In this document: one piece after another, positions 4,100-52,219 of the stretch | Numbering within the stretch: the first letter of the stretch is position 1 | Layout of the letters: each line of letters opens with the position of its first letter | NCBI GenBank assembly: GCA_025060695.1 | Contig: JANXBH010000001.1 | Location: 90,730-154,729, forward strand | Reading direction: 5' to 3' | DNA length: 64,000 nucleotides | DNA from: a candidate division WOR-3 bacterium | GTDB taxonomy: Bacteria; Hydrothermota; Hydrothermia; LBFQ01; DSFT01 | The notes under the pieces: model-generated | Database searches by the model: none | Told to the model about the DNA's origin: nothing | The model's input: only the letters and a program-made list of their open reading frames with translations | Program-made: the position numbers and the translations under genes

Positions 4100-4134
4100 G
4101 GTCTTAAATTTTAAAGTTTGTACCTTAAAATTTA

Positions 4135-4614: not shown

Positions 4615-5274
4615 ATAAAGACCAGATAGCGTCATATGAGGTTCATATTTATAGTCCTTAAAGAACTTTAAAAATAAATTCGCATTTCCACCAGTTATAA
4701 ACTTATGCTTTACATTGAATTCTTTTTCCAATTTTAAAATTAGAGATTTATAGCTATTTAACAAACCAAGTAGTATAGCCTCTTCTGTTGAGTTAGCTAT
4801 TGGTTTTTCCTGAATATCAAAACATGTATTTTCTAAATTTGGTAAAAGCGAAGTACTTTCATGTAAGCATTTTAAATAGTTTTTATAACCAAGTAATATA
4901 AAACCACCTTTAAATTCGCTATCTACTATATCTATTACTGTTGCTGTCCCAAAGTCTACCACTATAGAAATTTCCCCTAACTTGTATGAAATGTAATGTG
5001 CCTTTGCTATTCTATCGCTACCAAGTGTTTTTGAATAGTTCAACTTGACTAAACTACTTTCATAATTAAGTTCATACAAACTCTTATTTTTTAGTACTTC
5101 ACTTAAGTTTATTTCTTTTAAAACACTACAATATGCAATTTCTTCTATTTCATGAAAAAATTCCTGAATTTTTGATATTTCTACTAAACTAAATGTATTA
5201 AATTTTATTAAATCACCACTACTTACTATACCGCACTTAATTAAACTATTTCCAATATCTACTAAACCGACTAT
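4582..5274 (-). CDS. coaX: type III pantothenate kinase
   Basis: CoaX motifs in frame: VGLVDIGNS (N-terminal phosphate-1 loop), LGSDRIAKAHY, DFGTATVIDIV, ITGGNA. The ORF track begins at an internal TTG (5079). My in-frame translation is open up to 5304 with no ATG/GTG/TTG. I propose an ATA start at 5272-5274, which is 8 nt after a TAAAAT element. Confidence 0.7.
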   Translation of the reverse strand: MVGLVDIGNSLIKCGIVSSGDLIKFNTFSLVEISKIQEFFHEIEEIAYCSVLKEINLSEVLKNKSLYELNYESSLVKLNYSKTLGSDRIAKAHYISYKLGEISIVVDFGTATVIDIVDSEFKGGFILLGYKNYLKCLHESTSLLPNLENTCFDIQEKPIANSTEEAILLGLLNSYKSLILKLEKEFNVKHKFITGGNANLFLKFFKDYKYEPHMTLSGLYLWLVNFKSKR

Positions 5275-5280
5275 TGACCT

Positions 5281-5316
5281 AAATTTTAAAGCAACATAAC
5301 TGCTTTAAAATTTTTA
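5281..5316. promoter_or_regulatory. two copies of the palindromic TTTAAAATTTTAAA-type element in a 46-bp divergent intergenic region (coaX / RNB exoribonuclease)
   Basis: AAATTTTAAAG at 5281-5291 faces coaX, with ATA 8 nt downstream on the minus strand. CTTTAAAATTTTTA at 5303-5316 faces the RNB gene, with ATG 5321 9 nt after TAAAAT. Confidence 0.45.
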
Positions 5317-11669: not shown

Positions 11670-12056
11670 TTTCTTTACTGGAACTTTTATTTTTTTCTCG
11701 CCTGACTTTTTAAATTTTAATACCAGCTCAATAGTGTCATTTTCTCTTAAGTCTTCTTTTAAGTTTATAAGCATTACATGAAGACCCCCTGGCTCTAAGC
11801 TTAGTTTATCCTTTATCACTAAATAGTCTATTTTTTTCATCTCCATCATATCACCCTTTTTTATTGTCTCATGTAATTCGGTTATATTCGCACAATTGCA
11901 GTATGCTTCATACAAAGTATCCTCCATACCTTGATTATTCTTTATTTTCATATATACCGCACTTGAACCATCCTTAGGAGCTATTCTCGCATATGGATTC
12001 AATATCTCTATATCCTCACCTACCTTATTACATCCAACTATAAAAAGTAATATCAA
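11661..12056 (-). CDS. PCu(A)C-family periplasmic copper chaperone, lipoprotein
   Basis: Lipobox LFIVGC at the N-terminus. Cu(I)-binding pattern H..M...M..H.M (ELHETIKKGDMMEMKK ... GGLHVMLINLK) typical of DUF461/PCuAC. Confidence 0.6.
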   Translation of the reverse strand: MILLFIVGCNKVGEDIEILNPYARIAPKDGSSAVYMKIKNNQGMEDTLYEAYCNCANITELHETIKKGDMMEMKKIDYLVIKDKLSLEPGGLHVMLINLKEDLRENDTIELVLKFKKSGEKKIKVPVKKLE

Positions 12057-12088
12057 AATTTTTTGTCTTATGTTTTGATAAATTTTAA

Positions 12089-12105
12089 AGGGGGAACGGC
12101 CCCCT
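12089..12105 (-). terminator. GC-rich hairpin (GGGGG-AACGG-CCCCC) followed on the minus strand by a T-rich tract
   Basis: It immediately abuts the stop codon (12104-12106) of the TonB-dependent receptor gene. It is the only GC-only stem in an AT-rich intergenic region. Confidence 0.5.
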
Positions 12106-13977: not shown

Positions 13978-14238
13978 TTAAAAATTAGGAGGAGAGCGAA
14001 TATTTGGAAAAATAAGACTATAAGTTTCGTGCTTTTTAGTTTTCATTGATATTGAAACAATGTATAGAACTCTCGGTTTTTCTATTTTTAATGAAAAACC
14101 TTCGATTTTAGGAGGATTGTTTTGATAGTGTAAGATAAGACATTCTTCTAATATTGAATGATGAATATGATTGTGAAAGCTTGAAATTACAATTGCATTT
14201 AATATAAATATTAATGTGAGAAATGAGAAAATCTTCAA
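13978..14238 (-). CDS. small secreted His-rich protein (possible metal-binding)
   Basis: 86 aa with an N-terminal hydrophobic signal-like segment then FHNHIHHS. It has its own upstream TTTTATAATTTTAAAG element. It sits in the copper/metal gene block. Confidence 0.35.
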   Translation of the reverse strand: MKIFSFLTLIFILNAIVISSFHNHIHHSILEECLILHYQNNPPKIEGFSLKIEKPRVLYIVSISMKTKKHETYSLIFPNIRSPPNF

Positions 14239-15050
14239 GGTTTTATAATTTTAAAGTCCGCATCTATCAAAAATACTCCTTTTTTTACAATTTTTTCACC
14301 ATTCTTTATACCTTCAATTAAATAACCATCTTTTACATCAGTAATAATCTTTACTTCTTTTGCTTTAAATGAGCCATCTTCAAAAACATATACTATATCA
14401 CTATTTCCTGTTCTAATTACTGAACTTTTCGGAACAATCTTTCCCCTTATTTCCTTCACTATCTTACCTACTTCATAATTATTCTCAAAGAAAGTATTAT
14501 CATTTTTAAGAATAACGATAATTTCAAAGTAGTTTGCACTATTGGAAGAAGGTAAAATCTCTACTACTCTACCCTTAGTATTTCTAATTTCAACTATATC
14601 TCCTTTTTGAACATATAAAAAATCGCTTTTTCTAACGCTACCTATAAACTGAACAATAGAATTATTTACAATTTCCATAACTACAGAACCAGCCTCAAAT
14701 TTTTCACCTTCTGTTATATCAATTTTCAAAACTCTTCCACTAATAGGACTTCTAAAAATTATACTATCCGAAAATATATCTTCAGGACTTATTTGTAATA
14801 ACTTAATCCTCTCAAGAATAAAACTATCTTTAGTAATATCGAACTCCGATTTTATTCTTAAAATTTCAGGAGAATAAAAACTAAAAATCTTCTCTCCTCT
14901 ATTTATATATTCTCCTTCGTTTTGAATATAGAGATTTAAAACGTATCCAGAAAATCTTGGAACAATTTTTGTAATTGCATTTTTTGGAAATTTTACTACA
15001 CCTTCTATGATTATTTCCTTATAACCAACTGTATCTTTAACTAAAAAAAA
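14235..15050 (-). CDS. RND membrane fusion protein (CusB/HlyD family), C-terminal two-thirds; frame lacks a start codon
   Basis: By my hand translation the frame is open from 15050 down to 14235, about 272 codons. It encodes MFP-like beta-barrel and membrane-proximal segments (RSPISGRVLKIDITEGEKFEAGSVVMEI; IVYVFEDGSFKAKEVKI...GEKIVKKGVFLIDAD). There is no ATG/GTG/TTG before the internal TTG at 14729. It joins the upstream ORF by a 1-nt shift in a T8 run. Confidence 0.6.
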   Translation of the reverse strand, partial: FFLVKDTVGYKEIIIEGVVKFPKNAITKIVPRFSGYVLNLYIQNEGEYINRGEKIFSFYSPEILRIKSEFDITKDSFILERIKLLQISPEDIFSDSIIFRSPISGRVLKIDITEGEKFEAGSVVMEIVNNSIVQFIGSVRKSDFLYVQKGDIVEIRNTKGRVVEILPSSNSANYFEIIVILKNDNTFFENNYEVGKIVKEIRGKIVPKSSVIRTGNSDIVYVFEDGSFKAKEVKIITDVKDGYLIEGIKNGEKIVKKGVFLIDADFKIIKP

Positions 15051-15445
15051 TCAATAAGTTTATTATCTATTTGAGAATGTGTATGCTTAACTTCCCCCTT
15101 AAATGGTATATTTATTAGCTTTTCAATTTTGTTTCCATCTAACTCTAAAATAATAAACCACTCACCACTCATAGAAACAAAAACTTTTCCTTCGTAATTT
15201 TTATTTAGTTCAAATACTTCTGTCATGGCAGGCATGCCTGGCATTTCCGGCATATACAAATACGCCTTAAATGACCTTGGTTTTGGTTCTATTATAAACT
15301 TTACCTTATTTTCTCTTTCCTTTAGCATTCCATCAGTAGTTAAGATTTTTACTTTATATCCTTTATCTACTATTTCAAGAACTTCTTTATAATTTTGACC
15401 ACAGGATATAAGAAAAAGTAATATAAAAATTTTCCTCATATTCAA
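15041..15445 (-). CDS. lipoprotein N-terminal segment of the same CusB-like adaptor; Met-rich putative Cu(I) site
   Basis: Lipobox LISCGQ and a Met-rich motif YMPEMPGMPAMTEV. The ORF stops (TAG 15041-15043) right after GAU UUU UUU, inside the T8 homopolymer 15043-15050. Confidence 0.55.
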   Translation of the reverse strand: MNMRKIFILLFLISCGQNYKEVLEIVDKGYKVKILTTDGMLKERENKVKFIIEPKPRSFKAYLYMPEMPGMPAMTEVFELNKNYEGKVFVSMSGEWFIILELDGNKIEKLINIPFKGEVKHTHSQIDNKLIDFF

Positions 15446-24060: not shown

Positions 24061-24075
24061 TTTAAAATTTTAAAG
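24061..24075 (-). promoter_or_regulatory. TTTAAAATTTTAAAG element immediately upstream of the aminopropyltransferase paralog start
   Basis: Minus strand reads CTTTAAAATTTTAAACT-ATG, with TAAAAT ending 8 nt before the ATG at 24058. Confidence 0.45.
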
Positions 24076-29827: not shown

Positions 29828-29859
29828 GAAATTTTAAAGCAACCTTAAAATTTTGAAAT
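29828..29859. promoter_or_regulatory. back-to-back TAAAAT elements serving the divergent small ORF (-) and ccdA (+)
   Basis: GAAATTTTAAAG at 29828-29839 gives TAAAAT 7 nt before GTG 29823 on the minus strand. CCTTAAAATTTTGAAAT-ATG gives TAAAAT 8 nt before ccdA ATG 29860. Confidence 0.45.
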
Positions 29860-30711
29860 ATGGAAGAAGTAAATATTATTAGTGCCCTTATTGCAGGTTT
29901 CTTGTCATTTCTATCACCTTGTGTATTTCCACTTATCCCTGCATATATTTCGTATATTTCAGGTATTTCCATTAAGGACCTTTCAAATTCAAGAATTTCA
30001 ACAAATACCATAGTAAATCTAATTTCCTTTATCTTCGGATTTTCAATTATATTTATATTATTTGGTGCAAGTGCAACATTTATCGGTCAAGTACTTGCAC
30101 AGAATAAGCTACTAATATCAAAGTTTGCAAGTTTAGTAATTATTGTTTTTGGTTTAAATTTTATTGGAATTTTCAGATATAAAATTCAACTTCAACACAA
30201 AAAACTTATCAAAATTCTATCTTGGATAGTGTTAGCACTATTAATTATAGCTTTTTACGATGTTTTCAAAAACTGGTTATTTCTTCTATTTTCAGTTATT
30301 TTAATTACTCTATTTAATTATTTGAATCTCATTGATTTTGAATTTTTAAACTATGAGAAGAAGCTAAATGTAAATACTACAAGAAGAGGTTTAGTATCTT
30401 CACTCATACTTGGAAGTTCATTTGCATTTGGCTGGACACCCTGCATAGGACCAATTTTAGCAAGTATATTATCACTTGCAGCAATTCAAGAGACTGTATA
30501 TCAAGGTATTATACTTTTATCGTTCTATTCACTTGGACTTGGTATTCCATTTTTCCTTGCAGGCATATTGACTGATGCTTTACTTAGAAGTGTAAAGTTT
30601 ATGAAAAAATTTTTCGGTATAATTGAAGTCATTAGTGGTATTTTACTGATAGTTATTGGTATACTTATATACAACGATGCATTCACAATATTTGCATCAT
30701 TTTCTTCTTAA
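29860..30711 (+). CDS. ccdA: cytochrome c-type biogenesis / thiol-disulfide transporter CcdA (DsbD family)
   Basis: LSFLSPCVFPLIPAYISYISG (first Cys motif) and GWTPCIGPIL (second Cys), with 6-8 TM. Confidence 0.75.
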   Translation: MEEVNIISALIAGFLSFLSPCVFPLIPAYISYISGISIKDLSNSRISTNTIVNLISFIFGFSIIFILFGASATFIGQVLAQNKLLISKFASLVIIVFGLNFIGIFRYKIQLQHKKLIKILSWIVLALLIIAFYDVFKNWLFLLFSVILITLFNYLNLIDFEFLNYEKKLNVNTTRRGLVSSLILGSSFAFGWTPCIGPILASILSLAAIQETVYQGIILLSFYSLGLGIPFFLAGILTDALLRSVKFMKKFFGIIEVISGILLIVIGILIYNDAFTIFASFSS

Positions 30712-33007: not shown

Positions 33008-33991
33008 CTAACATATAGGCTCGTACAGGTTTTTCTTTACACATTCCTTGAACTTGTTTACCCTTTCCAATCTTAAAACTTTCCTACTTTCAGCTGACTT
33101 AAATCTTTCAATCTCATAGTCCCTCCAAGGATTAAATTGCTTTAATGGCTCAACTGAAACAAAAGTCATATAACTACTTGCAACTTTATATCTTGTTGAA
33201 GTAAGTGGCTCTTCTTTTATTATTTTTACACCAACTTCAATAGAGCGATGACCTACATAGTTTATACCAAGGTAGAAATGCAAGATATCTCCAGTTCTTA
33301 CAGGACAAATAAAGTCAAACTCATCGATTGATGCAGTAAACGACGGGCTTTTCGCATACTGAACACTTAAAATTCCACCAAGCTCATCTAACTTCTCAAA
33401 CAAATAACCTGCAAACATTGTATTAGAATATATAGTTTCATATGGAAAAACAAGTTTTGCAGAATACAAACTATAGGTAGGGACTTTTGATGTATCTAAG
33501 TCATTTATGTCTAATTTTCTATTCTTTATCCTTTCTAATCTATACGCCCTTTTTTTAAGACCCCATTCGTATATTTGTTTTTCTTTTTCATCCTTTGGGA
33601 CAACTTTTATGTCTAGCTTTCTTGGTTTTCCGCTTTCATCCACTGCAACGTATCCAAAATGAGCAAGTGTGACTACTTTTAATTCATTATCCTTTGTTCT
33701 TTTAAATACAGTAACACCTACTTCTAAAGAACTATTAAAAGTTGCCTGCACTCTTGATCTAAAAATAAGTGTATCTCCACTATGTACAGGTTCTATAAAA
33801 TCTACGCTATCCATAGAGCCAATTACAACTGGTCCTTGTGCTACTTTATTTGCAGAAAGAAGACTTGCCTGACTTATAAGATATAACATTTTACCGCCAA
33901 ACATTGTATTTGCAGGATTTATAAAATAAGGAAACACATATTCGTATATTTCTATAACTGTATCAGAAATATTTATTTCCTTCATCTTCAA
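33008..33991 (-). CDS. acyl-CoA thioesterase, tandem hot-dog domains
   Basis: Two repeats of the hot-dog thioesterase pattern (PANTMFGGKMLYLISQAS...GDTLIF and NTMFAGYLFEKLDELG...GDILHF). Confidence 0.65.
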   Translation of the reverse strand: MKMKEINISDTVIEIYEYVFPYFINPANTMFGGKMLYLISQASLLSANKVAQGPVVIGSMDSVDFIEPVHSGDTLIFRSRVQATFNSSLEVGVTVFKRTKDNELKVVTLAHFGYVAVDESGKPRKLDIKVVPKDEKEKQIYEWGLKKRAYRLERIKNRKLDINDLDTSKVPTYSLYSAKLVFPYETIYSNTMFAGYLFEKLDELGGILSVQYAKSPSFTASIDEFDFICPVRTGDILHFYLGINYVGHRSIEVGVKIIKEEPLTSTRYKVASSYMTFVSVEPLKQFNPWRDYEIERFKSAESRKVLRLERVNKFKECVKKNLYEPIC

Positions 33992-34565
33992 ATTTTAAAC
34001 TTAGAAAATCTCTAAGCTTTTTTAATGCAATAGCTCTATGACTAATTTTATTTTTAACTTCCATTTCTATTTCCCCAAATGTTTTTCCAATTGGTTTATA
34101 GTAAAATATTGGGTCATAACCAAAACCTTTATCTCCTCTTATTTGAAAACCAATTTCACCCTCCACCTTTCCCTCAAATACATGGCTTTCACCGTTGTTA
34201 TTTATAAACACAATGACACAATGAAAATACGCACTTCTATTTTCTTTATCTTTCATAAGTTCTAAGATTTTTTCTAAATAGTCTGGATTTCCTTTTTGAA
34301 ACTCAGCTGAATGAACACCGGGAAAACCACCTAACGCCTCTATAAAAATACCAGAATCATCAGATATTACTGGCATTCCTGTTATTTCATGAACTTTCTT
34401 TGCCTTAATTAGTGCATTTTCTAATAGCGTCTTTCCAGTTTCCTCTATTTGAATATCTAAACTTATATCTTCCAAAGACAGAAATTCTATATCCTTAAAG
34501 TCCTTGAAAAAATTTTTAATTTCTTCTATTTTATGTTTATTTCTTGAAGAAATTAGAATTTTCAG
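33963..34565 (-). CDS. rdgB: non-canonical purine NTP pyrophosphatase (RdgB/Ham1 family)
   Basis: GFGYDPIFY C-terminal motif. The in-frame N-terminus (L)KILISSRNKHKIEEIK aligns to the family start MKIVLATGNxGK. The ORF track starts at an internal TTG (34475). The frame is open up to the tRNA-Tyr 3' end with no ATG/GTG/TTG. Start assigned to CTG 34563-34565; ATT 34557-34559 is the alternative. Confidence 0.65.
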   Translation of the reverse strand: MKILISSRNKHKIEEIKNFFKDFKDIEFLSLEDISLDIQIEETGKTLLENALIKAKKVHEITGMPVISDDSGIFIEALGGFPGVHSAEFQKGNPDYLEKILELMKDKENRSAYFHCVIVFINNNGESHVFEGKVEGEIGFQIRGDKGFGYDPIFYYKPIGKTFGEIEMEVKNKISHRAIALKKLRDFLSLKFEDEGNKYF

Positions 34566-34568
34566 TAG

Positions 34569-34653
34569 TGGGCAGGGTAGGATTTGAACCTACGTAGGGC
34601 GTTAGCCCAGCAGGTTTACAGCCTGCCCCCGTTGGCCGCTTGGGTACCTGCCC
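34569..34653 (-). tRNA. tRNA-Tyr (anticodon GTA), long variable arm, CCA not encoded
   Basis: Acceptor GGGCAGG/CCTGCCC. Anticodon stem-loop GCAGG-CTGTAAA-CCTGC. T-arm GTAGGTTCAAATCCTAC. Confidence 0.85.
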
Positions 34654-34657
34654 AAAA

Positions 34658-34730
34658 AGCCAGCGGGCGGACTCGAACCGCCGACCTGCTGATTACAAAT
34701 CAGCCGCTCTACCAACTGAGCTACGCTGGC
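34658..34730 (-). tRNA. tRNA-Thr (anticodon TGT), CCA not encoded
   Basis: GCCAGCGTAGCTCAGTTGGTAGAGC...GCTGA-TTTGTAA-TCAGC...GGCGGTTCGAGTCCGCC-CGCTGGC. It is 4 nt upstream of tRNA-Tyr. Confidence 0.85.
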
Positions 34731-34751: not shown

Positions 34752-37700
34752 ATGCTTACATTACTTTTTAACCTTTCGTTTTATTATAACGAGCAAAATA
34801 TTAAAAAACTTCCCATTCTATTTGAAGAAGGTTATCCACAAATTCCATATGACTATAGACTTATTGAAATTCCTGAAAATGCAAAGAATATAAAAATTAA
34901 AAACACTTACTACCAGAAAAGTTTATACCAGTCCAATGCTATTTTAAAATACAACGACAAGATATACTACTTTGATAGAACAGGAGCGTTAAAGACTATT
35001 GATATTCCAAGAATAAACATAGGAAATAGGTTTCCGAAATCTCCTATTGAAATAAGAAGTATTGGTTATTTCAGAGAAAAGAAATATGTTCTTGTTTTTA
35101 TCTATCCTATCGTTTATGAAAATGGAAATTTGTATTTAAATGAAGTTATTTCCTTTGATATTGAATATGAAGAAGAACAAAGGAACTATAGTATTAGACC
35201 ATTGCCCGATAGCTTGGACTATGCGATATTAACGATAAGTTTGTTAAAAGAGCCTTTCGATTCTATTGCGCACCTTTCAAGAATAAGAGGCTTTAGAACT
35301 GAAGTTTTTTTAGTAGATACTATAAAAGAAAATCCTGAGAAAATAAGAAACTTCATAATTGAGCTTTATAGAACATTTGGTATAAAATATTTACTAATTG
35401 GAGCGGATGCAAGTATAGTTAAGCCTTGGAGATTTCAAGTAAGTTTTTATGATGCCGATCAATCCTTTTTGACAGGTCCTGATGTCCATACGGACTATCC
35501 ATATTCCGCACTTGATGGAAACTATATAAATGGTAAAAAGTGGAAAATGGGAGATAGTGTAATAGACCCGTTTGCAGACATTGGCATAGGTAGATTACCT
35601 GTAATTAATACCTACGAAGTTTTTAACTACTATAGAAAATTAAAGGACTGGACATTTAACTTTCAAGGAAATACCAATAGCTTTGCTTGTCTTGAAAGTG
35701 AAATTGCACTTAACTACTTCGGTAATTATTGCGAACATATTGTATTAGCCTCCAATTTACCAAAAATCACAAGACTTTATGAACCTTTCTTCAATGGTCA
35801 ACTAACTCCTCAAATACTTTTTGACTCACTAAATACAAACAAACCACAATTTTTCTTCTATATAGGACATGCTAATGGTTTTTATATTGCGTCAAGCTAT
35901 GCAAATCCAACCTATTATGTAGGGATACAGGACTTCTATAATGCTTCTTTAAACTATAGTGCTCCATATATTGCGATGTTTGGAGGATGTTGGACAGGAG
36001 ACTTGGAACATACTGCACTCGTAAAGAACATACTTACTATGCCTGAAAGAGGTTCTATATTTTCTATTGGAGCAAGCAAACTTGATAATACAGGTTCTGA
36101 AACTGCAAGAGGTATGAATTTCTTTTACGCATTCAACAGTTATAATGCTAAAACAATAGGAGATGCATATTTGCATATGGTTATGGGATTTGCAGGCTCA
36201 CTATTTGGTGTATATTCTAAATTGAACATGTTCGGAGATCCTACTATTGAACCTTATTTCAATGGGAAAAATTACATTAGTGCAAACCATGACAATTCAT
36301 TTTCAGATTCGCTTATTATAAATACAATACCTAATGCAAGAGTTTTGCTATATGATGGAGAATTATATGTCTATACTAAATCTAACAATTCAGGTAAAGC
36401 AATTTTAAGATATAATAGTAATCAAGCGAAAACACTATTGCTCTCTATTTCAAAACCATCGCATATTCCATATTATACTTATGTAAACTACTATCCTTCA
36501 GAAGTTATATTAGATAGTATTTCACTAAATTCAAATTCTGTAATTCCGGGAAATACGTACGAATTGAAATTCTATCTTTCTAATATTAGTTCAAATAATA
36601 TAAATGTAAACTTTAAGGTAAAATTCAATAATGCTATTCCTGACAGTATAGTTCAAAACTTAGATTTTAGCCCTCAAGAAAGTCAAATTATTAGCTCAAC
36701 AATTACAATCAAACCTGATGCAAAGAACCTTTTAGTATCTATATTTATAAATAACAATCTGATTAAGAGATTCTCCTATATAGTGCAAAAACCTGAAATA
36801 AAGTTAGTTGGAGTAAAATGGGAAAATGATAGTATAGCCTTGGACATTTATAACAAATCAAATATTAATATATATAATATTGAACTGAAGTTCCTGTCCT
36901 CAAATGTAAGCAAAACACTTGATTCTATAAGTGCAAAATCCAATACTTCTTATACTACCAAATTACCAAGAATATCAAATAATCCAAAACTCGTAATATC
37001 TTACGCAGGGAAACAAGATACCTACAATTTAAACTACCAGCTTCCATTAAATCCTCCTCAATTTTACTTATTTCCAAGAAGAGAGGGTATATATATAACT
37101 TTTGATACTTTGGACAATAGCTCAAGGTTCTATAAAATTTACAGAGCAAAGAGTCCAAATGGAGAATATAAATTTATTGATATAACCAATGAACTCTCAA
37201 AACTACATATGGATTATGTAGATAGCTTTGAGTTTTACTATTACAAAATTTCAAGCTTAGATTTTTACTACAACGAAGGGTATATATCTAACTACAAATC
37301 TCAAATAAAGAGTCCAAACTATAGTATATATAGACCTACCTATTTACCACAGCAGGGAGAAGTTCCACCGATAATTGGGAAATTTAATAGTTTAGAACAA
37401 AACAAGCAAGTTTTAGTATTTTCACCGATTTATGCAAGTTTTTATAACCATCAAGGTATTAATTTTAATGACTATCCAAAAGAACTAAAATTTAGGGCAC
37501 TTTCAAGCGCTCTTTCAGACATTGATGGAGATGGAATAAATGAAGCAATAGTTTCAGCACAGAAAGATGGAAAGTCATTTCTACTATTGGTAAAATTAGA
37601 CAAAATTGATACTATATTTATATCAAACTATTGGGGTGATGTTTCAATATATAACAAAGGTTTAGTTATTGCTAACTTTATAGGTGATACACTTCCTGAG

Positions 37701-38897
37701 ATAGCACTTAAAACTTATTACTCTGACGGTAATAACTATAAACAAAGAATTATTATAATCGACCCAAGAACAGAGAGTATAGTAAATGAATTTAAGTATT
37801 TCAAAGGAAACGTATCAGCCAATTGGGATATATGTGCAAGTGATTTTGATTATGATAAGATGTATGAAGTAGTGTTTTTGGACTCAATGGGTTTTCTTCA
37901 TATTAAAAAAACAAACGGACAAAGTATAAATAATTTTCCAATTGATATAAAACCTTATCTTCCATCTTCAAATATTGATAACTTGGGTCAGTTTTCTTGT
38001 GCGATAGATGCCAAGAACAATAAAATAATATTAGGAAGTACGATGTCAGGAACACTTAACATCATTCTCATAAATGTGAATAGTGGAATGGTTGAGATGG
38101 TCCAAAGTATAAATCAATTTATAAATAATAATCCTATTGACAATTTTGCACTATCACTTGGAGACTTAGATAACAATCAAATACCAGAAATTATTCTAAT
38201 TACAAATCACAATTACTATCATTCAAAATACATACTTATTATTAAACAAAATGGTAGTTTACTTACAAAATTTACTGGTCCTGAAAAAGATTGGGTTTGG
38301 TATTCACCTGCAAGCATAGTAGATATATGGAATGACAACAAAATAGAGTTGGTAATTAGTCTTCCAAGAAGAGTATTTATACTAACTTATCAAGATAGTC
38401 TATTTCATAATTTTGGTTCACCTATATTACTTGCGGACGACACACTACCTGAAGGTTATCCATATTATTCACCTATATTTGAGGATATAGATAATAATAA
38501 CAAAGTAGAAATGTTCGTAATGCAGTTATCAAATCCCTTATACTCTTTTGATTTGGGAATAGCTGGGAAAATTCAATGGAATGGAAATAGAGCAAATCCT
38601 TTAAATACAGCGGAATGGGGGAAAAGAGAGTATACCACAGTGGAAGAAAAACTTTCTAACTATGTAAAGTTTAACTCCAAGTTATTCGCAATTGAATATA
38701 ACTTAATTAGAACTGAAAACTATGTGCTTAGAATTTATGATATTTCAGGAAGAGAAGTTTATGAAGACAAAGGAAATATAGAAGGAAAGGGTGTTTTGGA
38801 ACTTAGAAAATTAAAATTAAAGACTGGAATTTACATAGTAGATTTTCATTCGGATAATTATAAATTAAGGACAAAAGCCTTAAATCTTGGTTTATAA
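34752..38897 (+). CDS. large secreted protein: C25-like cysteine peptidase core, FG-GAP-like repeats, T9SS C-terminal sorting domain
   Basis: 1381 aa. Candidate catalytic dyad contexts FFFYIGHANGF and IAMFGGCWTGD. DIDGDGINEAIV-type repeats. C-terminal approximately 80 aa (NYVKFNSK...VLRIYDISGREVYED...GIYIVDF...KLRTKALNLGL) matches the Por/T9SS type-A CTD pattern. Confidence 0.55.
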   Translation: MLTLLFNLSFYYNEQNIKKLPILFEEGYPQIPYDYRLIEIPENAKNIKIKNTYYQKSLYQSNAILKYNDKIYYFDRTGALKTIDIPRINIGNRFPKSPIEIRSIGYFREKKYVLVFIYPIVYENGNLYLNEVISFDIEYEEEQRNYSIRPLPDSLDYAILTISLLKEPFDSIAHLSRIRGFRTEVFLVDTIKENPEKIRNFIIELYRTFGIKYLLIGADASIVKPWRFQVSFYDADQSFLTGPDVHTDYPYSALDGNYINGKKWKMGDSVIDPFADIGIGRLPVINTYEVFNYYRKLKDWTFNFQGNTNSFACLESEIALNYFGNYCEHIVLASNLPKITRLYEPFFNGQLTPQILFDSLNTNKPQFFFYIGHANGFYIASSYANPTYYVGIQDFYNASLNYSAPYIAMFGGCWTGDLEHTALVKNILTMPERGSIFSIGASKLDNTGSETARGMNFFYAFNSYNAKTIGDAYLHMVMGFAGSLFGVYSKLNMFGDPTIEPYFNGKNYISANHDNSFSDSLIINTIPNARVLLYDGELYVYTKSNNSGKAILRYNSNQAKTLLLSISKPSHIPYYTYVNYYPSEVILDSISLNSNSVIPGNTYELKFYLSNISSNNINVNFKVKFNNAIPDSIVQNLDFSPQESQIISSTITIKPDAKNLLVSIFINNNLIKRFSYIVQKPEIKLVGVKWENDSIALDIYNKSNINIYNIELKFLSSNVSKTLDSISAKSNTSYTTKLPRISNNPKLVISYAGKQDTYNLNYQLPLNPPQFYLFPRREGIYITFDTLDNSSRFYKIYRAKSPNGEYKFIDITNELSKLHMDYVDSFEFYYYKISSLDFYYNEGYISNYKSQIKSPNYSIYRPTYLPQQGEVPPIIGKFNSLEQNKQVLVFSPIYASFYNHQGINFNDYPKELKFRALSSALSDIDGDGINEAIVSAQKDGKSFLLLVKLDKIDTIFISNYWGDVSIYNKGLVIANFIGDTLPEIALKTYYSDGNNYKQRIIIIDPRTESIVNEFKYFKGNVSANWDICASDFDYDKMYEVVFLDSMGFLHIKKTNGQSINNFPIDIKPYLPSSNIDNLGQFSCAIDAKNNKIILGSTMSGTLNIILINVNSGMVEMVQSINQFINNNPIDNFALSLGDLDNNQIPEIILITNHNYYHSKYILIIKQNGSLLTKFTGPEKDWVWYSPASIVDIWNDNKIELVISLPRRVFILTYQDSLFHNFGSPILLADDTLPEGYPYYSPIFEDIDNNNKVEMFVMQLSNPLYSFDLGIAGKIQWNGNRANPLNTAEWGKREYTTVEEKLSNYVKFNSKLFAIEYNLIRTENYVLRIYDISGREVYEDKGNIEGKGVLELRKLKLKTGIYIVDFHSDNYKLRTKALNLGL

Positions 38898-40289: not shown

Positions 40290-40375
40290 GGAGGGGTGCG
40301 CCGAACTGGTAAGGCAGCGGATTTGAAATCCGCCGGGGCTTAGGCCCCTTAGGGGTTCGAGTCCCCTCCCCTCCG
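40290..40375 (+). tRNA. tRNA-Ser (anticodon TGA), long variable arm
   Basis: GGAGGGG...GCGGA-TTTGAAA-TCCGC...variable arm GGGGCTTAGGCCCC...GGGGTTCGAGTCCCCT-CCCCTCC-G. Confidence 0.8.
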
Positions 40376-40380
40376 TTTCT

Positions 40381-40472
40381 GGAGAGGTGGCCGAGCGGTC
40401 GAAGGCGGGGGCTTGCTAAGCCTTTTCTCAGGTTAAAAGCCTGAGACGAGGGTTCAAATCCCTCCCTCTCCG
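40381..40472 (+). tRNA. tRNA-Ser (anticodon GCT), long variable arm
   Basis: GGAGAGGTGGCCGAGCGGTCGAAGGCG, anticodon loop TTGCTAA, variable arm CTCAGGTTAAAAGCCTGAG, T-arm GAGGGTTCAAATCCCTC. Confidence 0.8.
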
Positions 40473-40473
40473 C

Positions 40474-41712
40474 TTACAGTTTCTTTACTTTATAAATATA
40501 TGGATTTTCAGTAGCTTCTATGGTTTCATTATCTGAAAAAAGTTTTTCTTCCAGCTTTTCACCCTTTCTCAAGTCAGTAAAAATTATCTGAATATCTTTA
40601 TAAGGTTCATAACCGAGAAGCTTTAATAAGTTTTCAATTGCACTTCTAACATTTATCGGTTCTCCCATATCAAGAATAAGAATATCTCCACCATTTGAAA
40701 TAATTGGAGAATATAAGACTAACAAAACCGCTTCTTTCGGAGTTATAAAGTATCTCTTTGCATCTTTATGAGTAATTTTTACATAACCCTTTTGAACCTG
40801 TTTCAATATAGTAGGAATTAAACTTCCTCTTGAACCAATAACATTACCAAACCTTACCGCTATGTAATTATTTTCAATCACTAAATCCTCTGCTATACTT
40901 TTTGTCTTACCCATTATGCTTGTAGGCTCCACTGCCTTATCAGTGGATATAAATACAAATTTTTTAATACCATTCCTTTTTGAAAACTCTACTAATTTCT
41001 TAGTCCCAATGAAATTTACTTTATATGCCATATATTCAAAGTTTTCTAATATTGGAACATGTTTATATGCAGCACAATGAAATACTAAATCAATATGATT
41101 CTGAAAAACATCATAAAGACAATAATCATCAGTAATATCTCCAAGATAAATAATCAATCTATCATCATCTAAGTCATTTGACAATTCGTATAATCTGGTC
41201 TCATCTATATCCATAGCTATTACTTTTCTTACATTGAAATTTAGAACTTCCTTTACTAAATATGAACCAATTGAACCCGCTCCACCTGTTATTAAAATAT
41301 TTTTATTTTCATAAAATAGCTTTAAAGCTTCATAGTCTATCTGCATCTCTCTTTTTTTGAAAACGTCAAAAATATCAATTTCTACAACATGTTTTAAAAA
41401 TACTCTATCCTCCTTTACATAATAACTCGGCACAATCTTAATATCCTTAATACCTAATCTTAAAGAGAGCATTTCTATTTCTCTTATTCTTTGAATACTT
41501 GCAGAAGGCATAGCAATTATCAGACTATCTATATTCTTGAGTTTCCCAATAGAATTTATATCTCCAATTACTTTTATATTTTTATACTCTAAGTTCCACT
41601 TATTTTTATCGTCGTCCAAAAAACCAACTATTTTATAGTTTCCATTTTTCAATATATCATCTGCTACTTGTTTGCCTGCTTCTCCAAAACCATATATTAT
41701 AACTCTTTTCAT
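40474..41712 (-). CDS. nucleoside-diphosphate-sugar 4,6-dehydratase/epimerase (CapD/PglF/WbpM-like, Polysacc_synt_2)
   Basis: Rossmann ILITGGAGSIGSYLV. 412 aa soluble form of the CapD family. Confidence 0.7.
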   Translation of the reverse strand: MKRVIIYGFGEAGKQVADDILKNGNYKIVGFLDDDKNKWNLEYKNIKVIGDINSIGKLKNIDSLIIAMPSASIQRIREIEMLSLRLGIKDIKIVPSYYVKEDRVFLKHVVEIDIFDVFKKREMQIDYEALKLFYENKNILITGGAGSIGSYLVKEVLNFNVRKVIAMDIDETRLYELSNDLDDDRLIIYLGDITDDYCLYDVFQNHIDLVFHCAAYKHVPILENFEYMAYKVNFIGTKKLVEFSKRNGIKKFVFISTDKAVEPTSIMGKTKSIAEDLVIENNYIAVRFGNVIGSRGSLIPTILKQVQKGYVKITHKDAKRYFITPKEAVLLVLYSPIISNGGDILILDMGEPINVRSAIENLLKLLGYEPYKDIQIIFTDLRKGEKLEEKLFSDNETIEATENPYIYKVKKL

Positions 41713-45744: not shown

Positions 45745-46915
45745 ATACCTCTAATATCATGCTTGCACCCATACCTCCACCTACACAAGCACTAACTATA
45801 CCATAACCACCACCTCTTTTTCTTAATTCATGTATTAATTTCGTTGTTAAAATAGCACCAGTTGCACCAAGTGGATGTCCAAGCGATATTGCTCCACCAT
45901 TTACATTTAACTTCTCCAACGGTATGGGTAGTTCTCTTAATACCGCAATAACTTGTGTAGCAAATGCTTCATTTAGTTCAATAAGCTTTATATCATCTAA
46001 TTTTAAGTTTGCTTTTCGTAATGACTTTGGAATAGCATATGCGGGTGCTATGCCCATTATTTCCGCAGGAACCCCAACAACTTGAAATGTAATAAATCTT
46101 GCAAGTGGCTTTAAACCAAGTTCTTTAGCTTTTCTCTCACTCATCATTAAAACCGCACTTGCACCATCACTCCTTTGAGAAGCATTACCTGCTGTAACAG
46201 TCCCATCTACCTTAAAATATGGTTTTAAACTCAGAAGTCCCTCTAATGTAGTATCTGGTCTTGGACATTCATCATGTTCAAAAATTTTTTCAATTAATTG
46301 ACTATTTCCATCTTCATCTTCTATTCTAACTTTCACTTTTATTGGGACAATTTCTTCTTTAAATTTTCCACTTAATACTGCCTGAGCTCCTCTTGTGTGA
46401 GATAAATATGCAAATTCGTCTACTTCCCTTCTTGTAATATTATAAATAGGAACTAAGTTTTCCGCAGTTAGTCCCATATTTAAATAGTAGTGTGGAAAAT
46501 TTTGAGCAACATATGGCTCAGGTCTAAATTTATAACCCGGCATAGGAACTAAACTCATATTTTCAACACCACCCGCTATTGCAACATCTATTTCACCAAC
46601 TATAATCCTATGAGCAGTCTGAGCTATAGTTTGTATAGATGATGCACAGTATCTATTAACTGTTACAGCAGGAATTGAGTTTGGAAGCCCTGCTCTGTAA
46701 ATTACTGTTCTTGCAAGGTTCATACCCTGATATGCCTCAGGAAACGCACATCCAATAGACACGTCTTCTATTATATATGGTTCTATTTTCGTTTCATCCA
46801 ATATAGCTTTAATTACTTCAGATAGTAGATATTCTGGTCTTGTGTCCTTTAGTGTTCCTTTAATTGCTTTTCCTATAGCTGTTCGCTTTGCACTAACAAT
46901 TACAGCGTTGTTCAC
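45734..46915 (-). CDS. acetyl-CoA C-acetyltransferase (thiolase)
   Basis: AVIVSAKRTAIGK N-terminus, RYCASSIQ (active-site Cys), NGGAISLGHPLGATG, CVGGGMGAS. Confidence 0.85.
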   Translation of the reverse strand: MNNAVIVSAKRTAIGKAIKGTLKDTRPEYLLSEVIKAILDETKIEPYIIEDVSIGCAFPEAYQGMNLARTVIYRAGLPNSIPAVTVNRYCASSIQTIAQTAHRIIVGEIDVAIAGGVENMSLVPMPGYKFRPEPYVAQNFPHYYLNMGLTAENLVPIYNITRREVDEFAYLSHTRGAQAVLSGKFKEEIVPIKVKVRIEDEDGNSQLIEKIFEHDECPRPDTTLEGLLSLKPYFKVDGTVTAGNASQRSDGASAVLMMSERKAKELGLKPLARFITFQVVGVPAEIMGIAPAYAIPKSLRKANLKLDDIKLIELNEAFATQVIAVLRELPIPLEKLNVNGGAISLGHPLGATGAILTTKLIHELRKRGGGYGIVSACVGGGMGASMILEVYGS

Positions 46916-46957
46916 AACTGAAAGTTTAAAGTAGATGCTTTAAAATTTTGGAAAATT

Positions 46958-47031
46958 GGGCGGGTAGCTCAGCTGGTGAGAGCGCTGCCCTTACAAGGCA
47001 GAGGTCAGAGGTTCAAGTCCTCTCCCGCCCA
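46958..47031 (+). tRNA. tRNA-Val (anticodon TAC)
   Basis: GGGCGGGTAGCTCAGCTGGTGAGAGC...CTGCC-CTTACAA-GGCAG...AGAGGTTCAAGTCCTCT-CCCGCCC-A. Confidence 0.85.
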
Positions 47032-47033
47032 TA

Positions 47034-47699
47034 ATAAAATATATTATCATTGTCCCAACTTATAATGAATTTCCTAAGATAATCCAAACAATTGAAAATC
47101 TAAAAAACTATAATTACGATGTATTATTCATAGATGATGGATCAAGCGATGGAACATTTGAAGTTATTAAAAGTTCTGGTTTTAAATATATAAAAAATCA
47201 AAAAAATTTTGGAAAGGGTTATAGTATAAAAAGGGGTTTAGAATATGCTATCTTAAATAACTATCAAGTAGTAATCACATTAGATGCGGATGGACAACAT
47301 CCAATAGAATACATTCCGAAATTCATAGAGAAGATTCAAAACTACGATATTGTTATTGGTTCAAGAAGAAAACTTATGCATCCAAAAAATATGCCATTTG
47401 ATAGGTATATTTCCAATAGACTAAACTCTTCAATTGTTTCAATTTTTTGCAATAAAATTATACCAGATGCACTCTGTGGCTATAGGGCAATTAGAACCAA
47501 GATTTTAAAGGATATTAACTTTAATTGTAATAGATTTGAATTTGAAATAGAGTTCATAGTAAAAGCTTGTAAATATGGATTTAGTATTGGATTCTTAGAT
47601 ATACCTTTAATTTATAAGGATGAAAAAAGCCATATAAGAAAAGTCTTAGATACATTAAGAGTAATGAAATTATACTTCAGCTTTATCTTGTTTTCTTAG
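47034..47699 (+). CDS. family 2 glycosyltransferase (dolichyl/polyprenyl-phosphate glycosyltransferase-like)
   Basis: In-frame N-terminus IKYIIIVPTYNEF...FIDDGSSDGT...ITLDADGQHP (GT2 DxD/DAD motifs). The ORF track only reports from the internal ATG 47376. The frame is open back into tRNA-Val with no ATG/GTG/TTG. First codon after the tRNA is ATA 47034-47036. Confidence 0.65.
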   Translation: MKYIIIVPTYNEFPKIIQTIENLKNYNYDVLFIDDGSSDGTFEVIKSSGFKYIKNQKNFGKGYSIKRGLEYAILNNYQVVITLDADGQHPIEYIPKFIEKIQNYDIVIGSRRKLMHPKNMPFDRYISNRLNSSIVSIFCNKIIPDALCGYRAIRTKILKDINFNCNRFEFEIEFIVKACKYGFSIGFLDIPLIYKDEKSHIRKVLDTLRVMKLYFSFILFS

Positions 47700-47724
47700 T
47701 TATAGCTTTAAACTTTAGGGCTTT

Positions 47725-48681
47725 ATGAAAACATTGGAATATCTTATTAATTTTGAAGGCAAGATATGTCTTATTGCACATAGTAATCCCGACCCTGATT
47801 GTATTGGGAGTATGTTAGCACTATATAATTACCTTAATAAGTTTAATAAAGATGTTATTATGATTTCAAAAGACGAGCCTATAGGAACTATAAAATATTT
47901 AAAAGGTTTTGACAAAATAATTAGAATAGGGAATTTACCTGAGACGGATTTATACGTACTAATTGACCAGTCTGAAGTGGAAAGAAGCGGAATAAATCCA
48001 GAGGAATTTAAAGATAAAAACATAATAAAAATTGACCATCATATTACAAATAAAAAATATAGTGAATATGACTATATAGATGAAAATGCTCCATCAACAA
48101 CTTCATTAATGTTAGAACTTATGAGAAACTACAATGAAGAATTAATAGATGAAAATATAGCTGAGTGTATATTCGTAGGCTTGTCAGCAGATACAGGAAA
48201 CTTTTCGTTCTCTAATTTAAAAGTAGCATTTGAAAATGCTCTATATTTAGCAAATAGGGGATTTAATATAAATAGATTTTCTGAGAAGTTTTTAAGAAAT
48301 CAGTCCATAAATAGAATGGAGTTAATAAGATTAGCACTATCTACATTAAGGTATGAAGATAACATTGGATATATTATAATAAGAAAAAAATTTTATGAAA
48401 TTTCAGGAGCAAAGAAATATGAAAATTATGGAATAGTAGATATTCCTTTATCTTTAAGTAATGTGAAAGTTGCTCTGAAATTTGAAGAAATGGAAAATGG
48501 CTGGAAAGTGAATTTAAGAAGTAAAGAAAATATTGATGTTCAGAAATTTGCTGAAAAGCACAATGGTGGTGGTCATAAAAATGCATCCGCTTTTAGAATT
48601 AATGAGAAAATTCCTGAAAGTGAACTTATAGAGCGTATTATTGAAGATTTGAAAAACTACTTAAAAACTATTCATGAATAA
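47725..48681 (+). CDS. nrnA: DHH/DHHA1 phosphoesterase (NrnA-like oligoribonuclease / pAp phosphatase)
   Basis: IAHSNPDPDCIGS, DHH motif (KIDHHITN), DHHA1 GGGHKNASAF. Confidence 0.7.
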   Translation: MKTLEYLINFEGKICLIAHSNPDPDCIGSMLALYNYLNKFNKDVIMISKDEPIGTIKYLKGFDKIIRIGNLPETDLYVLIDQSEVERSGINPEEFKDKNIIKIDHHITNKKYSEYDYIDENAPSTTSLMLELMRNYNEELIDENIAECIFVGLSADTGNFSFSNLKVAFENALYLANRGFNINRFSEKFLRNQSINRMELIRLALSTLRYEDNIGYIIIRKKFYEISGAKKYENYGIVDIPLSLSNVKVALKFEEMENGWKVNLRSKENIDVQKFAEKHNGGGHKNASAFRINEKIPESELIERIIEDLKNYLKTIHE

Positions 48682-49795
48682 TAGCTTTGATTTCTTTTAT
48701 TTCTTCGCCATTTTTAACATTTAAAACTTCTAATAGTCTATCAAGGTCATTGTTAAGAAATTCATAAATAAAGCGAATAATATTTTTAAAGTTTCTGTCA
48801 GTTAATTGTTTTAACTCATTATAGCTAATACTTCTTAAATGAAAGAGCATAATTTTGGAAAAGAAATCAATAATATTTAAGTTATAATCCTTTTCAAAGA
48901 AAGCTTTTATGTGAATAGGTAAATTTTTAAACTTTAAAAGTTTTTTCTCAATTGATAGTGCATATCTAATAGCATTTTCTATCTCACTAAAATTTCCAAA
49001 CCAAGGATAAGTTAAGTACGCTCTATAAAAGTCCTCTTCAATTTCTACCATTTCATTCGTAATATTTCTTAAAAAGTGCTCTAATATAAGTAGTTTCTCT
49101 TTATGGTTTCTTTCAGAGATAGATGGTATATAGATTGATGGTACTGTAGAAAGATTTATAGGTGGAGAGATATTGTCCGTAATGAATACAATTCTTCCTT
49201 TCTTTTTATATATACTATTTACAGCAAAATTAAATTCAAGAATACTTTCAAATAGGTCTATATTCATTATAATTATTGACTTAGTCTTTTCTTTTTCTTT
49301 TCTAAAACCCACTTCCTTTTCCTCAATTTCAAAATAGTCTACTGCTCTATCTCCAATTATAGAGCGTATAATTGTATATTTACCAACACCCCTTTGACCA
49401 TATATCAAAATCCAAGGTTCATACTCACTATTTAGTAGTATTTCAAGTTTTCTATATATGTCATCTGTTTTTCCATAATAGCAAACAAAGTTTACATTTG
49501 CAGGCTTTAAATCGTTTATAGCATAGTATTTATTATAAAATTCTATCATTCTTTGTCTAATAGTTTTTTTTGAATAGACTTCAAGAAAGTTATTTAAATC
49601 ATCTTCGTTTTCAAAAGAATAGTCTATAGTTTGTAAGTTAGAAGAGCCTATAGTTATAGTTGTAAAATTCAGAGATATTTCATACAGTTCCTTGTAATTA
49701 TTATCAGCAATTACAACGTCTGGGAATTCATCTATGTTTACTTGATTGTAGCTTTCCTTTATTTTAATATTTTTAGATAAATTAAGAATTTTCAA
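48668..49795 (-). CDS. AAA+ ATPase related to sigma-54 activator domains (degenerate)
   Basis: Walker A ILIYGQRGVGKYT and the C-terminal PWFGNFSEIENAIRYA resembling the WPGNVRELEN signature. No GAFTGA, no receiver domain and no obvious HTH. Start taken as TTG 49793-49795, 4 nt after tRNA-Gly. The ORF track began at a TTG inside the tRNA. Confidence 0.4.
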   Translation of the reverse strand: MKILNLSKNIKIKESYNQVNIDEFPDVVIADNNYKELYEISLNFTTITIGSSNLQTIDYSFENEDDLNNFLEVYSKKTIRQRMIEFYNKYYAINDLKPANVNFVCYYGKTDDIYRKLEILLNSEYEPWILIYGQRGVGKYTIIRSIIGDRAVDYFEIEEKEVGFRKEKEKTKSIIIMNIDLFESILEFNFAVNSIYKKKGRIVFITDNISPPINLSTVPSIYIPSISERNHKEKLLILEHFLRNITNEMVEIEEDFYRAYLTYPWFGNFSEIENAIRYALSIEKKLLKFKNLPIHIKAFFEKDYNLNIIDFFSKIMLFHLRSISYNELKQLTDRNFKNIIRFIYEFLNNDLDRLLEVLNVKNGEEIKEIKAIIHE

Positions 49796-49798
49796 AAG

Positions 49799-49870
49799 AG
49801 CGAGCGACGGGACTTGAACCCGCAACCCCCAGCTTGGAAGGCTGGCGCTCTACCGTTGAGCTACGCTCGC
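49799..49870 (-). tRNA. tRNA-Gly (anticodon TCC)
   Basis: GCGAGCGTAGCTCAACGGTAGAGC...CCAGC-CTTCCAA-GCTGG...GCGGGTTCAAGTCCCGT-CGCTCGC-T. Confidence 0.85.
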
Positions 49871-52174: not shown

Positions 52175-52219
52175 TTTTAAAATTTTAAAACACATTTATT
52201 CACTTTAAAATTTAAAAAG
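52175..52219. promoter_or_regulatory. tandem TTTTAAAATTTTAAAA / CTTTAAAATTTAAAAA elements between lipA (-) and the + strand operon start
   Basis: lipA ATG 52172 is preceded on the minus strand by TAAAAT-containing sequence. The + gene GTG 52219 lies 7 nt after TAAAAT. Confidence 0.45.

Follow-up and report, generated by a model that had tools for sequence, protein, structure and literature searches.

How is a gene translated when its reading frame opens 2 nt behind a tRNA and then runs for 114 codons before it offers an ATG, GTG or TTG? The question is raised by a 64,000-nt stretch of DNA from a candidate division WOR-3 bacterium (the window; GenBank assembly GCA_025060695.1, contig JANXBH010000001.1, positions 90,730–154,729 of the forward strand), in which a gene for a family 2 glycosyltransferase (GT2) follows tRNA-Val(TAC) on the same strand. 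The answer that we favour, with moderate confidence, is that GT2 is intact, is transcribed from the tRNA-Val promoter and, through cleavage at the tRNA 3' end, yields an mRNA with almost no leader, on which translation begins at a near-cognate codon.

The junction between tRNA-Val and GT2

ARAGORN bounds tRNA-Val at 46957–47032 with the anticodon TAC, and Rfam places its discriminator at A47031 (Table 1). The sequence downstream of the discriminator reads TA ATA AAA TAT ATT ATC ATT GTC CCA ACT TAT AAT GAA, and in-frame translation across the junction yields ...W-stop-ERCPYKAEVRGSSPLPP-I-IKYIIIVPTYNEF...IDDGSSDG...DADGQH. An earlier note on this DNA had the GT2 frame opening 2 nt past the discriminator, which was confirmed; the codons that it gave after the tRNA, ATA ATA AAA TAT ATT ATC, are found as (A)TA ATA AAA TAT ATT ATC. 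Its statement that no canonical start precedes ATG 47376 was also confirmed: from the TGA inside tRNA-Val to this ATG, which lies 114 codons past ATA 47034, the GT2 frame is free of ATG, GTG and TTG. The window has 78 stop-to-stop frames of 100 codons or more; of those with a canonical start, GT2 has the longest distance from the opening of the frame to that start (132 codons; median, 6).

The frame encodes a complete glycosyltransferase domain. Pfam PF00535 matches it with 98.4 bits (cut-off 23.3, E = 5.6e-28) over profile positions 2–167 of 168, beginning at residue 6 of the frame. The N-terminal nucleotide-sugar- and metal-binding motifs are present, IDDGS (residues 33–37) and DAD (residues 84–86, the DXD motif) being invariant in the six GT2 orthologues described below. 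A product begun at ATG 47376 would lack the nucleotide-binding half, as the earlier note had argued, with the DDGS and DAD motifs lying at residues 34–86. GT2 reached none of the NCBIfam equivalog cut-offs (best score 85 bits vs a cut-off of 325, for models including AglJ, PpgS, dolichyl-phosphate hexose transferase and ArnC), so that, although it resembles polyprenyl-phosphate sugar transferases, an assignment at the family level only is warranted.

Signals for independent expression of GT2 were sought around the junction. No Shine-Dalgarno or GGAGG-like motif occurs upstream of the GT2 start, and the 2-nt spacer leaves no room for a leader. Prediction gave no promoter-like site between tRNA-Val and ATA 47034 and no terminator-like site in 46700–47900. 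Past the proposed cut at the tRNA 3' end, the predicted minimum-free-energy fold of the first 60 nt consists of one weak hairpin (7 pairs, −3.7 kcal/mol, z −0.98), and the first 14 nt, start codon included, are predicted to be unpaired. Since the DHH gene downstream has a −10-like box of its own, GT2 is probably the sole coding sequence that depends on the tRNA-Val transcript.

Conservation of starts behind tRNAs

The five best GT2 matches in the protein collection share 55–62% identity with the window's protein and are called at 242, 209, 205, 169 and 148 aa. Their called N-termini are cut at differing places, following the shifting position of the first canonical codon, and the N-terminal extension of one of them (P0001) is translated tRNA. 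At the DNA level, six diverged orthologous GT2 loci (55–64% amino acid identity) all have tRNA-Val(TAC), itself almost identical across the six lineages, 1–3 nt upstream of GT2. Written as discriminator, slash, spacer in lower case, start and next codons, the junctions are A/ta ATA AAA TAT in the window, A/t ATT AAA AAG in L004, A/t ATC AAA AGA in L005, A/ttt ATT AAA ACA in L006–L008, A/tt ATA AAG TAT in L009–L010 and A/tcc ATT AGA ACA in L012–L014. The aligned start codon is thus AUH (AUA, AUU or AUC) in all six lineages and canonical in none. Because spacer length shifts the frame relative to the tRNA from lineage to lineage, the GT2 protein is not a product of tRNA read-through.

The surroundings of the pair are not conserved. 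Upstream of tRNA-Val, depending on the lineage, lie genes for a thiolase, a ferredoxin, DUF92, an NADH dehydrogenase subunit, MnmA or a methyltransferase, and downstream of GT2 genes for DHH, ZnuA, Uma2 or a P-type ATPase. As every other neighbour changes between lineages, the tRNA–GT2 pair is kept by selection and not by general synteny. The six proteins translated from AUH align end to end without stops. Ratios of nonsynonymous to synonymous substitution for GT2 codons 2–115 range from 0.06 to 0.43, with 0.15 and 0.13 in the two least saturated pairs and a range like that of the C-terminal half; across these codons synonymous sites are near saturation and the protein level is conserved. By these ratios, the N-terminal half of GT2 is under purifying selection. 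The junction is identical in L003 (Logan SRR15826900), which was assembled independently from the window's own population, and unrelated assemblies show the same architecture, so that an indel near the junction, by which the earlier note would have been refuted, was not borne out. Judged by these sequence comparisons, GT2 is neither an assembly error nor a pseudogene.

Distant GT2 homologues from metagenomes differ in both respects. Among the matches listed, all 80 begin with a canonical codon, which as a rule stands five codons ahead of the IIP motif, and only one has a same-strand tRNA within 60 nt. The family consensus M-K-x-S-I-I-I-P had been aligned with ATA 47034 in the earlier note, and the distant homologues carry their canonical start at that place, as M-K-x-L-I-I-I-P-x-Y-N-E. 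Together with the AUH codons of the orthologues and the selection on the N-terminus, they support an intact GT2 that starts at ATA 47034 and not at the internal ATG. The one tRNA-linked case among the 80 (L058, positions 485–640, an unrelated metagenome contig) has GT2 behind tRNA-Leu(TAA), which TTG follows at 11 nt and ATG at 26 nt. A metagenome scan with the orthologue alignment, whose patterns were too generic, gave no new close GT2 orthologues among the matches listed, and when representative genomes were scanned with the protein, the yield was two remote GT2s only, exact 8-mer patterns being too strict at 60% identity.

Two further genes of the window stand directly behind tRNAs. Past tRNA-Tyr the sequence runs CTA and then CTG AAA ATT CTA ATT TCT TCA AGA AAT AAA; the rdgB protein matches the Ham1 profile over its entire length (1–186 of 186) from the codon after CTG, and the NCBI record MCS7244629.1 begins M-KILISS at this CTG. 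Past tRNA-Gly it runs CTT and then TTG AAA ATT CTT AAT, and in L003 a gene caller put the start of the AAA+ gene at the same TTG. All three tRNA clusters with a same-strand downstream gene are therefore followed by a gene that starts 2–3 nt past the discriminator, as the earlier note had claimed, with the qualification that TTG, the start of the AAA+ gene, is among the standard alternatives to ATG. In the fourth cluster, the gene that adjoins the two tRNA-Ser is convergent.

These arrangements are conserved as well, tRNA-Thr/Tyr preceding rdgB in five of five lineages and tRNA-Gly preceding the AAA+ gene in two of two. The rdgB junctions are A/cta CTG in the window, A/ttt CTG in L015, A/cttt CTG in L016–L017, A/ctt TTG in L102 and A/ttt ATA in L103; those of the AAA+ gene are T/ctt TTG in the window and T/cttaatta TTG in L009–L011, where TTG lies 8 nt past tRNA-Gly and an in-frame TAA intervenes. 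Near-cognate starts are accordingly retained in every lineage of rdgB (5/5), as in GT2 (6/6). Over the 13 junctions the start codon is AUH at seven, CUG at three and UUG at three, and AUG and GUG at none; each codon seen is one substitution from ATG, and the spacer measures 1–4 nt at 12 of the 13. CTG is kept in three rdgB lineages at 29% G+C, where it is expected to be a rare leucine codon, which argues that it is kept for pairing with the initiator anticodon and not for leucine. ATG is a single step away from CTG, TTG or ATA, whereas two steps separate these codons from each other (CTG and TTG excepted), which suggests that tRNA-linked starts have moved away from ATG repeatedly.

Table 1. 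Coordinates of the principal features, in positions of the window.
Feature	Positions	Strand	Remarks
Promoter-like site	46918–46946	+	CTGAAA, 17 nt, TAAAAT; 9/12 matches; contains GCTTTAAAATTT box; upstream of tRNA-Val
tRNA-Val(TAC)	46958–47031	+	Rfam RF00005, 76.2 bits, model positions 1–71 of 71; discriminator A47031; CCA not encoded
Spacer TA	47032–47033	+	2 nt, tRNA-Val discriminator to proposed GT2 start
GT2 glycosyltransferase coding sequence	47034–47699	+	Proposed start ATA 47034; 221 aa plus TAG stop (47697–47699)
ATG in GT2 frame	47376–47378	+	Earliest canonical start in frame; read as internal Met codon (residue 115), not start
DHH/DHHA1 (NrnA-like) gene	47725–48681	+	Downstream of GT2; own −10-like box TAAACT 10 nt before ATG
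tRNA-Thr(TGT)	34658–34730	−	4 nt from tRNA-Tyr; promoter box upstream of the pair
tRNA-Tyr(GTA)	34569–34653	−
rdgB (Ham1-family NTP pyrophosphatase)	33963–34565	−	Start CTG 34565–34563, 3 nt past tRNA-Tyr discriminator
tRNA-Gly(TCC)	49799–49870	−	Promoter box upstream
AAA+-lid-domain protein gene	48668–49795	−	375 aa; start TTG 49795–49793, 3 nt past tRNA-Gly discriminator
coaX (type III pantothenate kinase)	4582–5274	−	No canonical start; likely ATA 5274, 8 nt past GCTTTAAAAT box; no tRNA
GCTTTAAAATTT sites	e.g. 4108–4135, 5280–5311, 24061–24074, 29830–29860, 52176–52211		About 20 in the window

A proposed route of expression and its rivals

The promoters of the window bear on how such genes might be read. 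A GCTTTAAAATTT box with the −10-like TAAAAT lies 10–13 nt before the first tRNA 5' end in each of the four clusters of the window as well as in every relative. Among protein genes, a TAWAAT or TAAACT hexamer ends 5–11 nt before the start in 20 of 61, vs 3.7% of all NTG triplets, and genes inside operons often carry GGAGG; this spacing suggests that first cistrons in this WOR-3 bacterium are typically leaderless. Since about a third of the genes look leaderless, ribosomes here should be able to load at a 5'-terminal start.

From what the computations show (adjacency, no canonical start, a unit and a near-cognate codon that are both conserved, purifying selection), together with the absence of an intervening promoter or terminator, the leaderless-type promoter spacing elsewhere in the window and the absence of an encoded CCA, we infer a route comprising co-transcription, a cleavage enzyme and site, leaderless-type initiation, the codon used and a dosage rationale. 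GT2, having no promoter, 5' untranslated region or Shine-Dalgarno of its own, would owe its transcription to the tRNA promoter, as the 3' trailer of tRNA-Val. An endonucleolytic cut after the discriminator would make the tRNA 3' end; such a cut is required because tRNA-Val encodes no CCA, as is the case for all six tRNAs (four clusters) of the window. RNase Z is the normal enzyme for 3' cleavage of CCA-less pre-tRNAs and hence is expected here. The cut would free an mRNA starting UA-AUA-AAA, with its 5' end 2 nt before ATA 47034, and ribosomes would load at this 5'-terminal start, where the initiator tRNA would read the near-cognate codon: AUA in the window's GT2, AUU or AUC in its relatives, CUG, UUG or AUA in rdgB and UUG in the AAA+ gene. 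One mRNA would be released per matured tRNA, and the weak start would probably throttle translation, offsetting the strong tRNA promoter. This would prevent over-production of a low-abundance enzyme and may make output sensitive to initiation factor IF3.

A wider proposal, which we hold only tentatively, is that a thermophilic WOR-3 lineage uses mitochondria-like tRNA punctuation for housekeeping genes, with 5'-monophosphate near-leaderless mRNAs whose near-cognate starts would be positively selected over AUG, whether as a counterweight to transcription at tRNA strength or as a way to tie enzyme output to IF3 and tRNA synthesis.

Several points weigh against initiation at a near-cognate codon behind the tRNA. 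Leaderless initiation in the bacteria studied (E. coli, mycobacteria) strongly prefers AUG or GUG, and AUH or CUG on a near-leaderless mRNA would be unusual. The 20 promoter-derived leaderless genes of the window start mostly with ATG (ATG 14, GTG 4, TTG 2), which implies that near-cognate use is not a general property of the ribosome here. An in-frame ATT or ATC at 47043–47051, a few codons downstream, could be the real GT2 start. Moreover, the 13 junctions come from phylogenetically related lineages and represent fewer than 13 independent events.

One gene without a tRNA, coaX, also lacks a canonical start. The Pan_kinase profile (positions 3–201 of 205) is matched from residue 14 of its open frame, and the match begins three codons past ATA 5274. 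In a relative at 88% identity, TTG stands in place of the window's TCA, with ATA next in both, and more distant relatives start with ATG. The comparison suggests that the window's lineage lost its coaX start recently and apparently gets by with the next codon, ATA; coaX thus indicates that AUA is probably usable at a 5' end in this bacterium. Its value as another conserved example is only partial, its ATA being recent in the window's lineage and its relatives having TTG or ATG.

Four other explanations were weighed against an intact, tRNA-released GT2. An assembly or sequencing indel at the junction, or a pseudogene 5'-truncated recently when the tRNA landed beside it, would fit the observation that gene callers yield only a 107-aa GT2 fragment and that the protein search returned no full-length record identical to the window's GT2. 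We nevertheless regard it as extremely improbable, given the identical junction in L003, the architecture shared by six diverged lineages, the full GT2 domain without stops, the purifying selection on its N-terminal half and the lack of an upstream ATG, in any frame, that a single indel could reach. Initiation at ATG 47376 or another canonical codon, with a C-terminal fragment as the only product, gains from this ATG being the sole canonical start in the frame, but the fragment would be devoid of the DDGS and DAD motifs, the first canonical codon is placed differently in each orthologue, and the N-terminal part is conserved as protein while its synonymous sites approach saturation; we judge it very improbable. 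Translation might instead take place on the unprocessed tRNA–mRNA precursor or begin inside the tRNA, with the tRNA body as a ribosome-recruiting or standby element and AUH as an internal isoleucine codon. The aligned GT2 codon is indeed always isoleucine (ATA, ATT or ATC), as a conserved internal residue would be, the frame is open back into tRNA-Val, and some NCBI and ENA calls begin inside the tRNA (P0001, P0082, P0212). However, spacers of 1, 2 and 3 nt vary the frame across the tRNA, so that any extension is unrelated sequence; the window's frame has no ATG, GTG or TTG in tRNA-Val after its TGA; a TAA stands in frame between tRNA and TTG at the L009 AAA+ junction; the aligned rdgB codon is CTG, TTG or ATA and does not specify one amino acid; and the tRNA 3' halves share no consistent Shine-Dalgarno-like motif. 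A folded, processed tRNA is moreover an implausible coding leader, and we consider this explanation improbable.

The most serious rival, although in our estimate still an unlikely one, holds that near-cognate starts are tolerated throughout the lineage, through relaxed IF3 proofreading or AT pressure, and that adjacency to tRNAs is a by-product of compaction, initiation being independent of tRNA processing. In its favour, coaX appears to use ATA with no tRNA, a lipoprotein candidate described below may use ATA 12071, and genes are packed very densely, many of them overlapping and one having its stop codon directly against tRNA-Ser. Such tolerance does not readily account for the distribution of starts, since 61 other genes of the window are canonical and only one or two are not, whereas two of the three tRNA-adjacent genes lack ATG, GTG and TTG and none of the three has ATG. 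Nor is the coaX ATA comparable in age: it is recent and confined to a single lineage, whereas the tRNA-linked near-cognate starts span about 40% protein divergence. The tRNA linkage has outlasted the rearrangement of all other neighbours, and GT2 has no promoter unless it is served by the tRNA transcript. Two further ideas were discarded: A-to-I editing of AUA to AUI is ruled out by the AUU and AUC that relatives carry at the same position, and the tRNA as a P-site mimic like an internal ribosome entry site is ruled out on geometry, as the coding sequence follows the acceptor end and not the anticodon.

Known systems, annotation and other features of the window

The closest analogue would be the tRNA punctuation of animal mitochondria, in which tRNAs punctuate the transcripts, mRNA leaders measure 0–3 nt and AUA and AUU serve as starts. 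As in mitochondria, the tRNAs described here abut coding sequences (within 1–4 nt at 12 of 13 junctions), there is no Shine-Dalgarno, AUA and AUU occur as starts, tandem tRNAs stand 4–5 nt apart, and the mRNA 5' end, with its leader of 0–4 nt, presumably derives from tRNA 3' cleavage. Unlike mitochondria, this is a free-living diderm WOR-3 bacterium with an ordinary large genome, in which most genes have promoters of their own and CUG and UUG are used as well. In addition, only the 5' side of the mRNA is bounded by a tRNA, the 3' side of GT2 being the DHH promoter box; most genes of the window are not flanked by tRNAs; and tRNA processing is here predicted from sequence. In the mitochondrial model, RNase P and RNase Z cut each mRNA out of a polycistronic precursor at the tRNAs; the missing CCA, and the lack of a promoter or terminator between tRNA and coding sequence, would fit such excision here indirectly.

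Bacterial leaderless mRNAs, exemplified by those of mycobacteria (PMC4633059), offer a second comparison. As in Actinobacteria and Deinococcus-Thermus, the start would lie within a few nucleotides of the inferred 5' end without a Shine-Dalgarno, and about 20 genes of the window are of such a type. Known bacterial leaderless mRNAs acquire their 5' end by transcription initiation and begin with AUG or GUG, whereas a processed 5'-monophosphate end and AUH, CUG or UUG are proposed here; the window's GT2 has ATA, and neither AUG nor GUG occurs at any of the 13 junctions.

Conserved near-cognate starts are known from E. coli infC and pcnB, both with AUU, where initiation is weak and probably IF3-sensitive. 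Conservation of a near-cognate start over evolutionary time is common to those genes and the ones described here. infC and pcnB have normal leaders with a Shine-Dalgarno and no link to a tRNA, whereas here three unrelated families share the feature through their position behind tRNAs. In the E. coli thrU-tyrU-glyT-thrT-tufB operon, a protein gene relies on a tRNA promoter, and tRNA processing sets its mRNA free. Its spacer measures about 100 nt and tufB has a Shine-Dalgarno and an ATG; here the spacer is 1–4 nt, with neither Shine-Dalgarno nor ATG. Discrimination of start codons by IF3 has been described (PMC9723500). The open-access papers and bioRxiv preprints searched gave no description of bacterial genes that abut tRNAs and have conserved near-cognate starts, which is not proof of novelty; the matches were papers on mitochondria and general ones on leaderless mRNAs or IF3. 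RNase Z is named in transcriptome studies of Streptomyces and P. acnes, but not in connection with mRNA 5' ends.

Current annotation handles these genes inconsistently. Gene calling reduces the window's GT2 to a fragment of 107 aa and puts its orthologues at 148, 169, 205, 209, 215, 222 or 242 aa, with records of 222 aa (from an ATT overlapping the tRNA discriminator), 215 aa and 169 aa in the L009 lineage alone. Identical rdgB DNA appears in NCBI records as 200 aa (from CTG), 196 aa (from a downstream ATT) and 206 aa (from an ATC inside tRNA-Tyr). For coaX, one record of 224 aa starts at a downstream ATT and loses the Asp of DIGNS, and another of 230 aa starts at ATA (MDW8149914.1). Gene finders thus truncate tRNA-adjacent genes and, if the proposed route is correct, systematically miss a distinct and predictable class of starts; a simple repair would be to accept a near-cognate start for any open frame whose homology begins within 4 nt past a same-strand tRNA. 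The route would also imply that bacterial leaderless initiation can use a processed monophosphate 5' end and AUH or CUG, which work on model organisms suggests to be very inefficient. It would constitute a bacterial counterpart of mitochondrial tRNA punctuation and bear on whether the latter is a late oddity or draws on an existing bacterial capacity.

The window has 26–33% G+C. LpxK and MlaD indicate a diderm cell, and the G+C-rich tRNAs, at a genomic G+C content of about 29%, point to a thermophilic lineage, as does a reverse gyrase in the related contig L009. The GCTTTAAAATTT box is partly palindromic and often occurs in back-to-back divergent pairs that serve leaderless genes on both strands. 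The two tRNA-Ser (40290–40375 and 40381–40472 by Rfam) lie 5 nt apart, and the TAA of the convergent 412-aa gene (complement of 40474–40476) is within one base of the 3' end of the second. Packing here and at tRNA-Thr/Tyr is so tight that it leaves no room for terminators.

Three further loci deserve mention. A 131-aa open reading frame (ORF) called from TTG 12056 on the reverse strand (region 12056–12089) may start at ATA 12071, 10 nt past a TTTAAAAT box that follows the G+C-rich, hairpin-like GGGGGCCGTTCCCCC; this start would yield a typical lipoprotein signal, (M)RQKILILLFIVGC. Also on the reverse strand (region 14235–15445), a YtkA-like ORF (15445–15041) ends in a T8 run (15043–15050), and an HlyD_D23 membrane-fusion domain continues in another frame, which offers no canonical start for 107 codons. 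Together the two frames resemble a single CusB-type adaptor (about 405 aa) interrupted by a homopolymer frameshift, for which a sequencing error, a pseudogene or programmed slippage might account. Finally, divergent from the tRNA-Thr/Tyr promoter region, 34752–38897 on the forward strand encodes a protein of 1381 aa in which a peptidase C25 (gingipain-like) domain is combined with FG-GAP repeats, and this gene has its own TATAAT box 8 nt before ATG.

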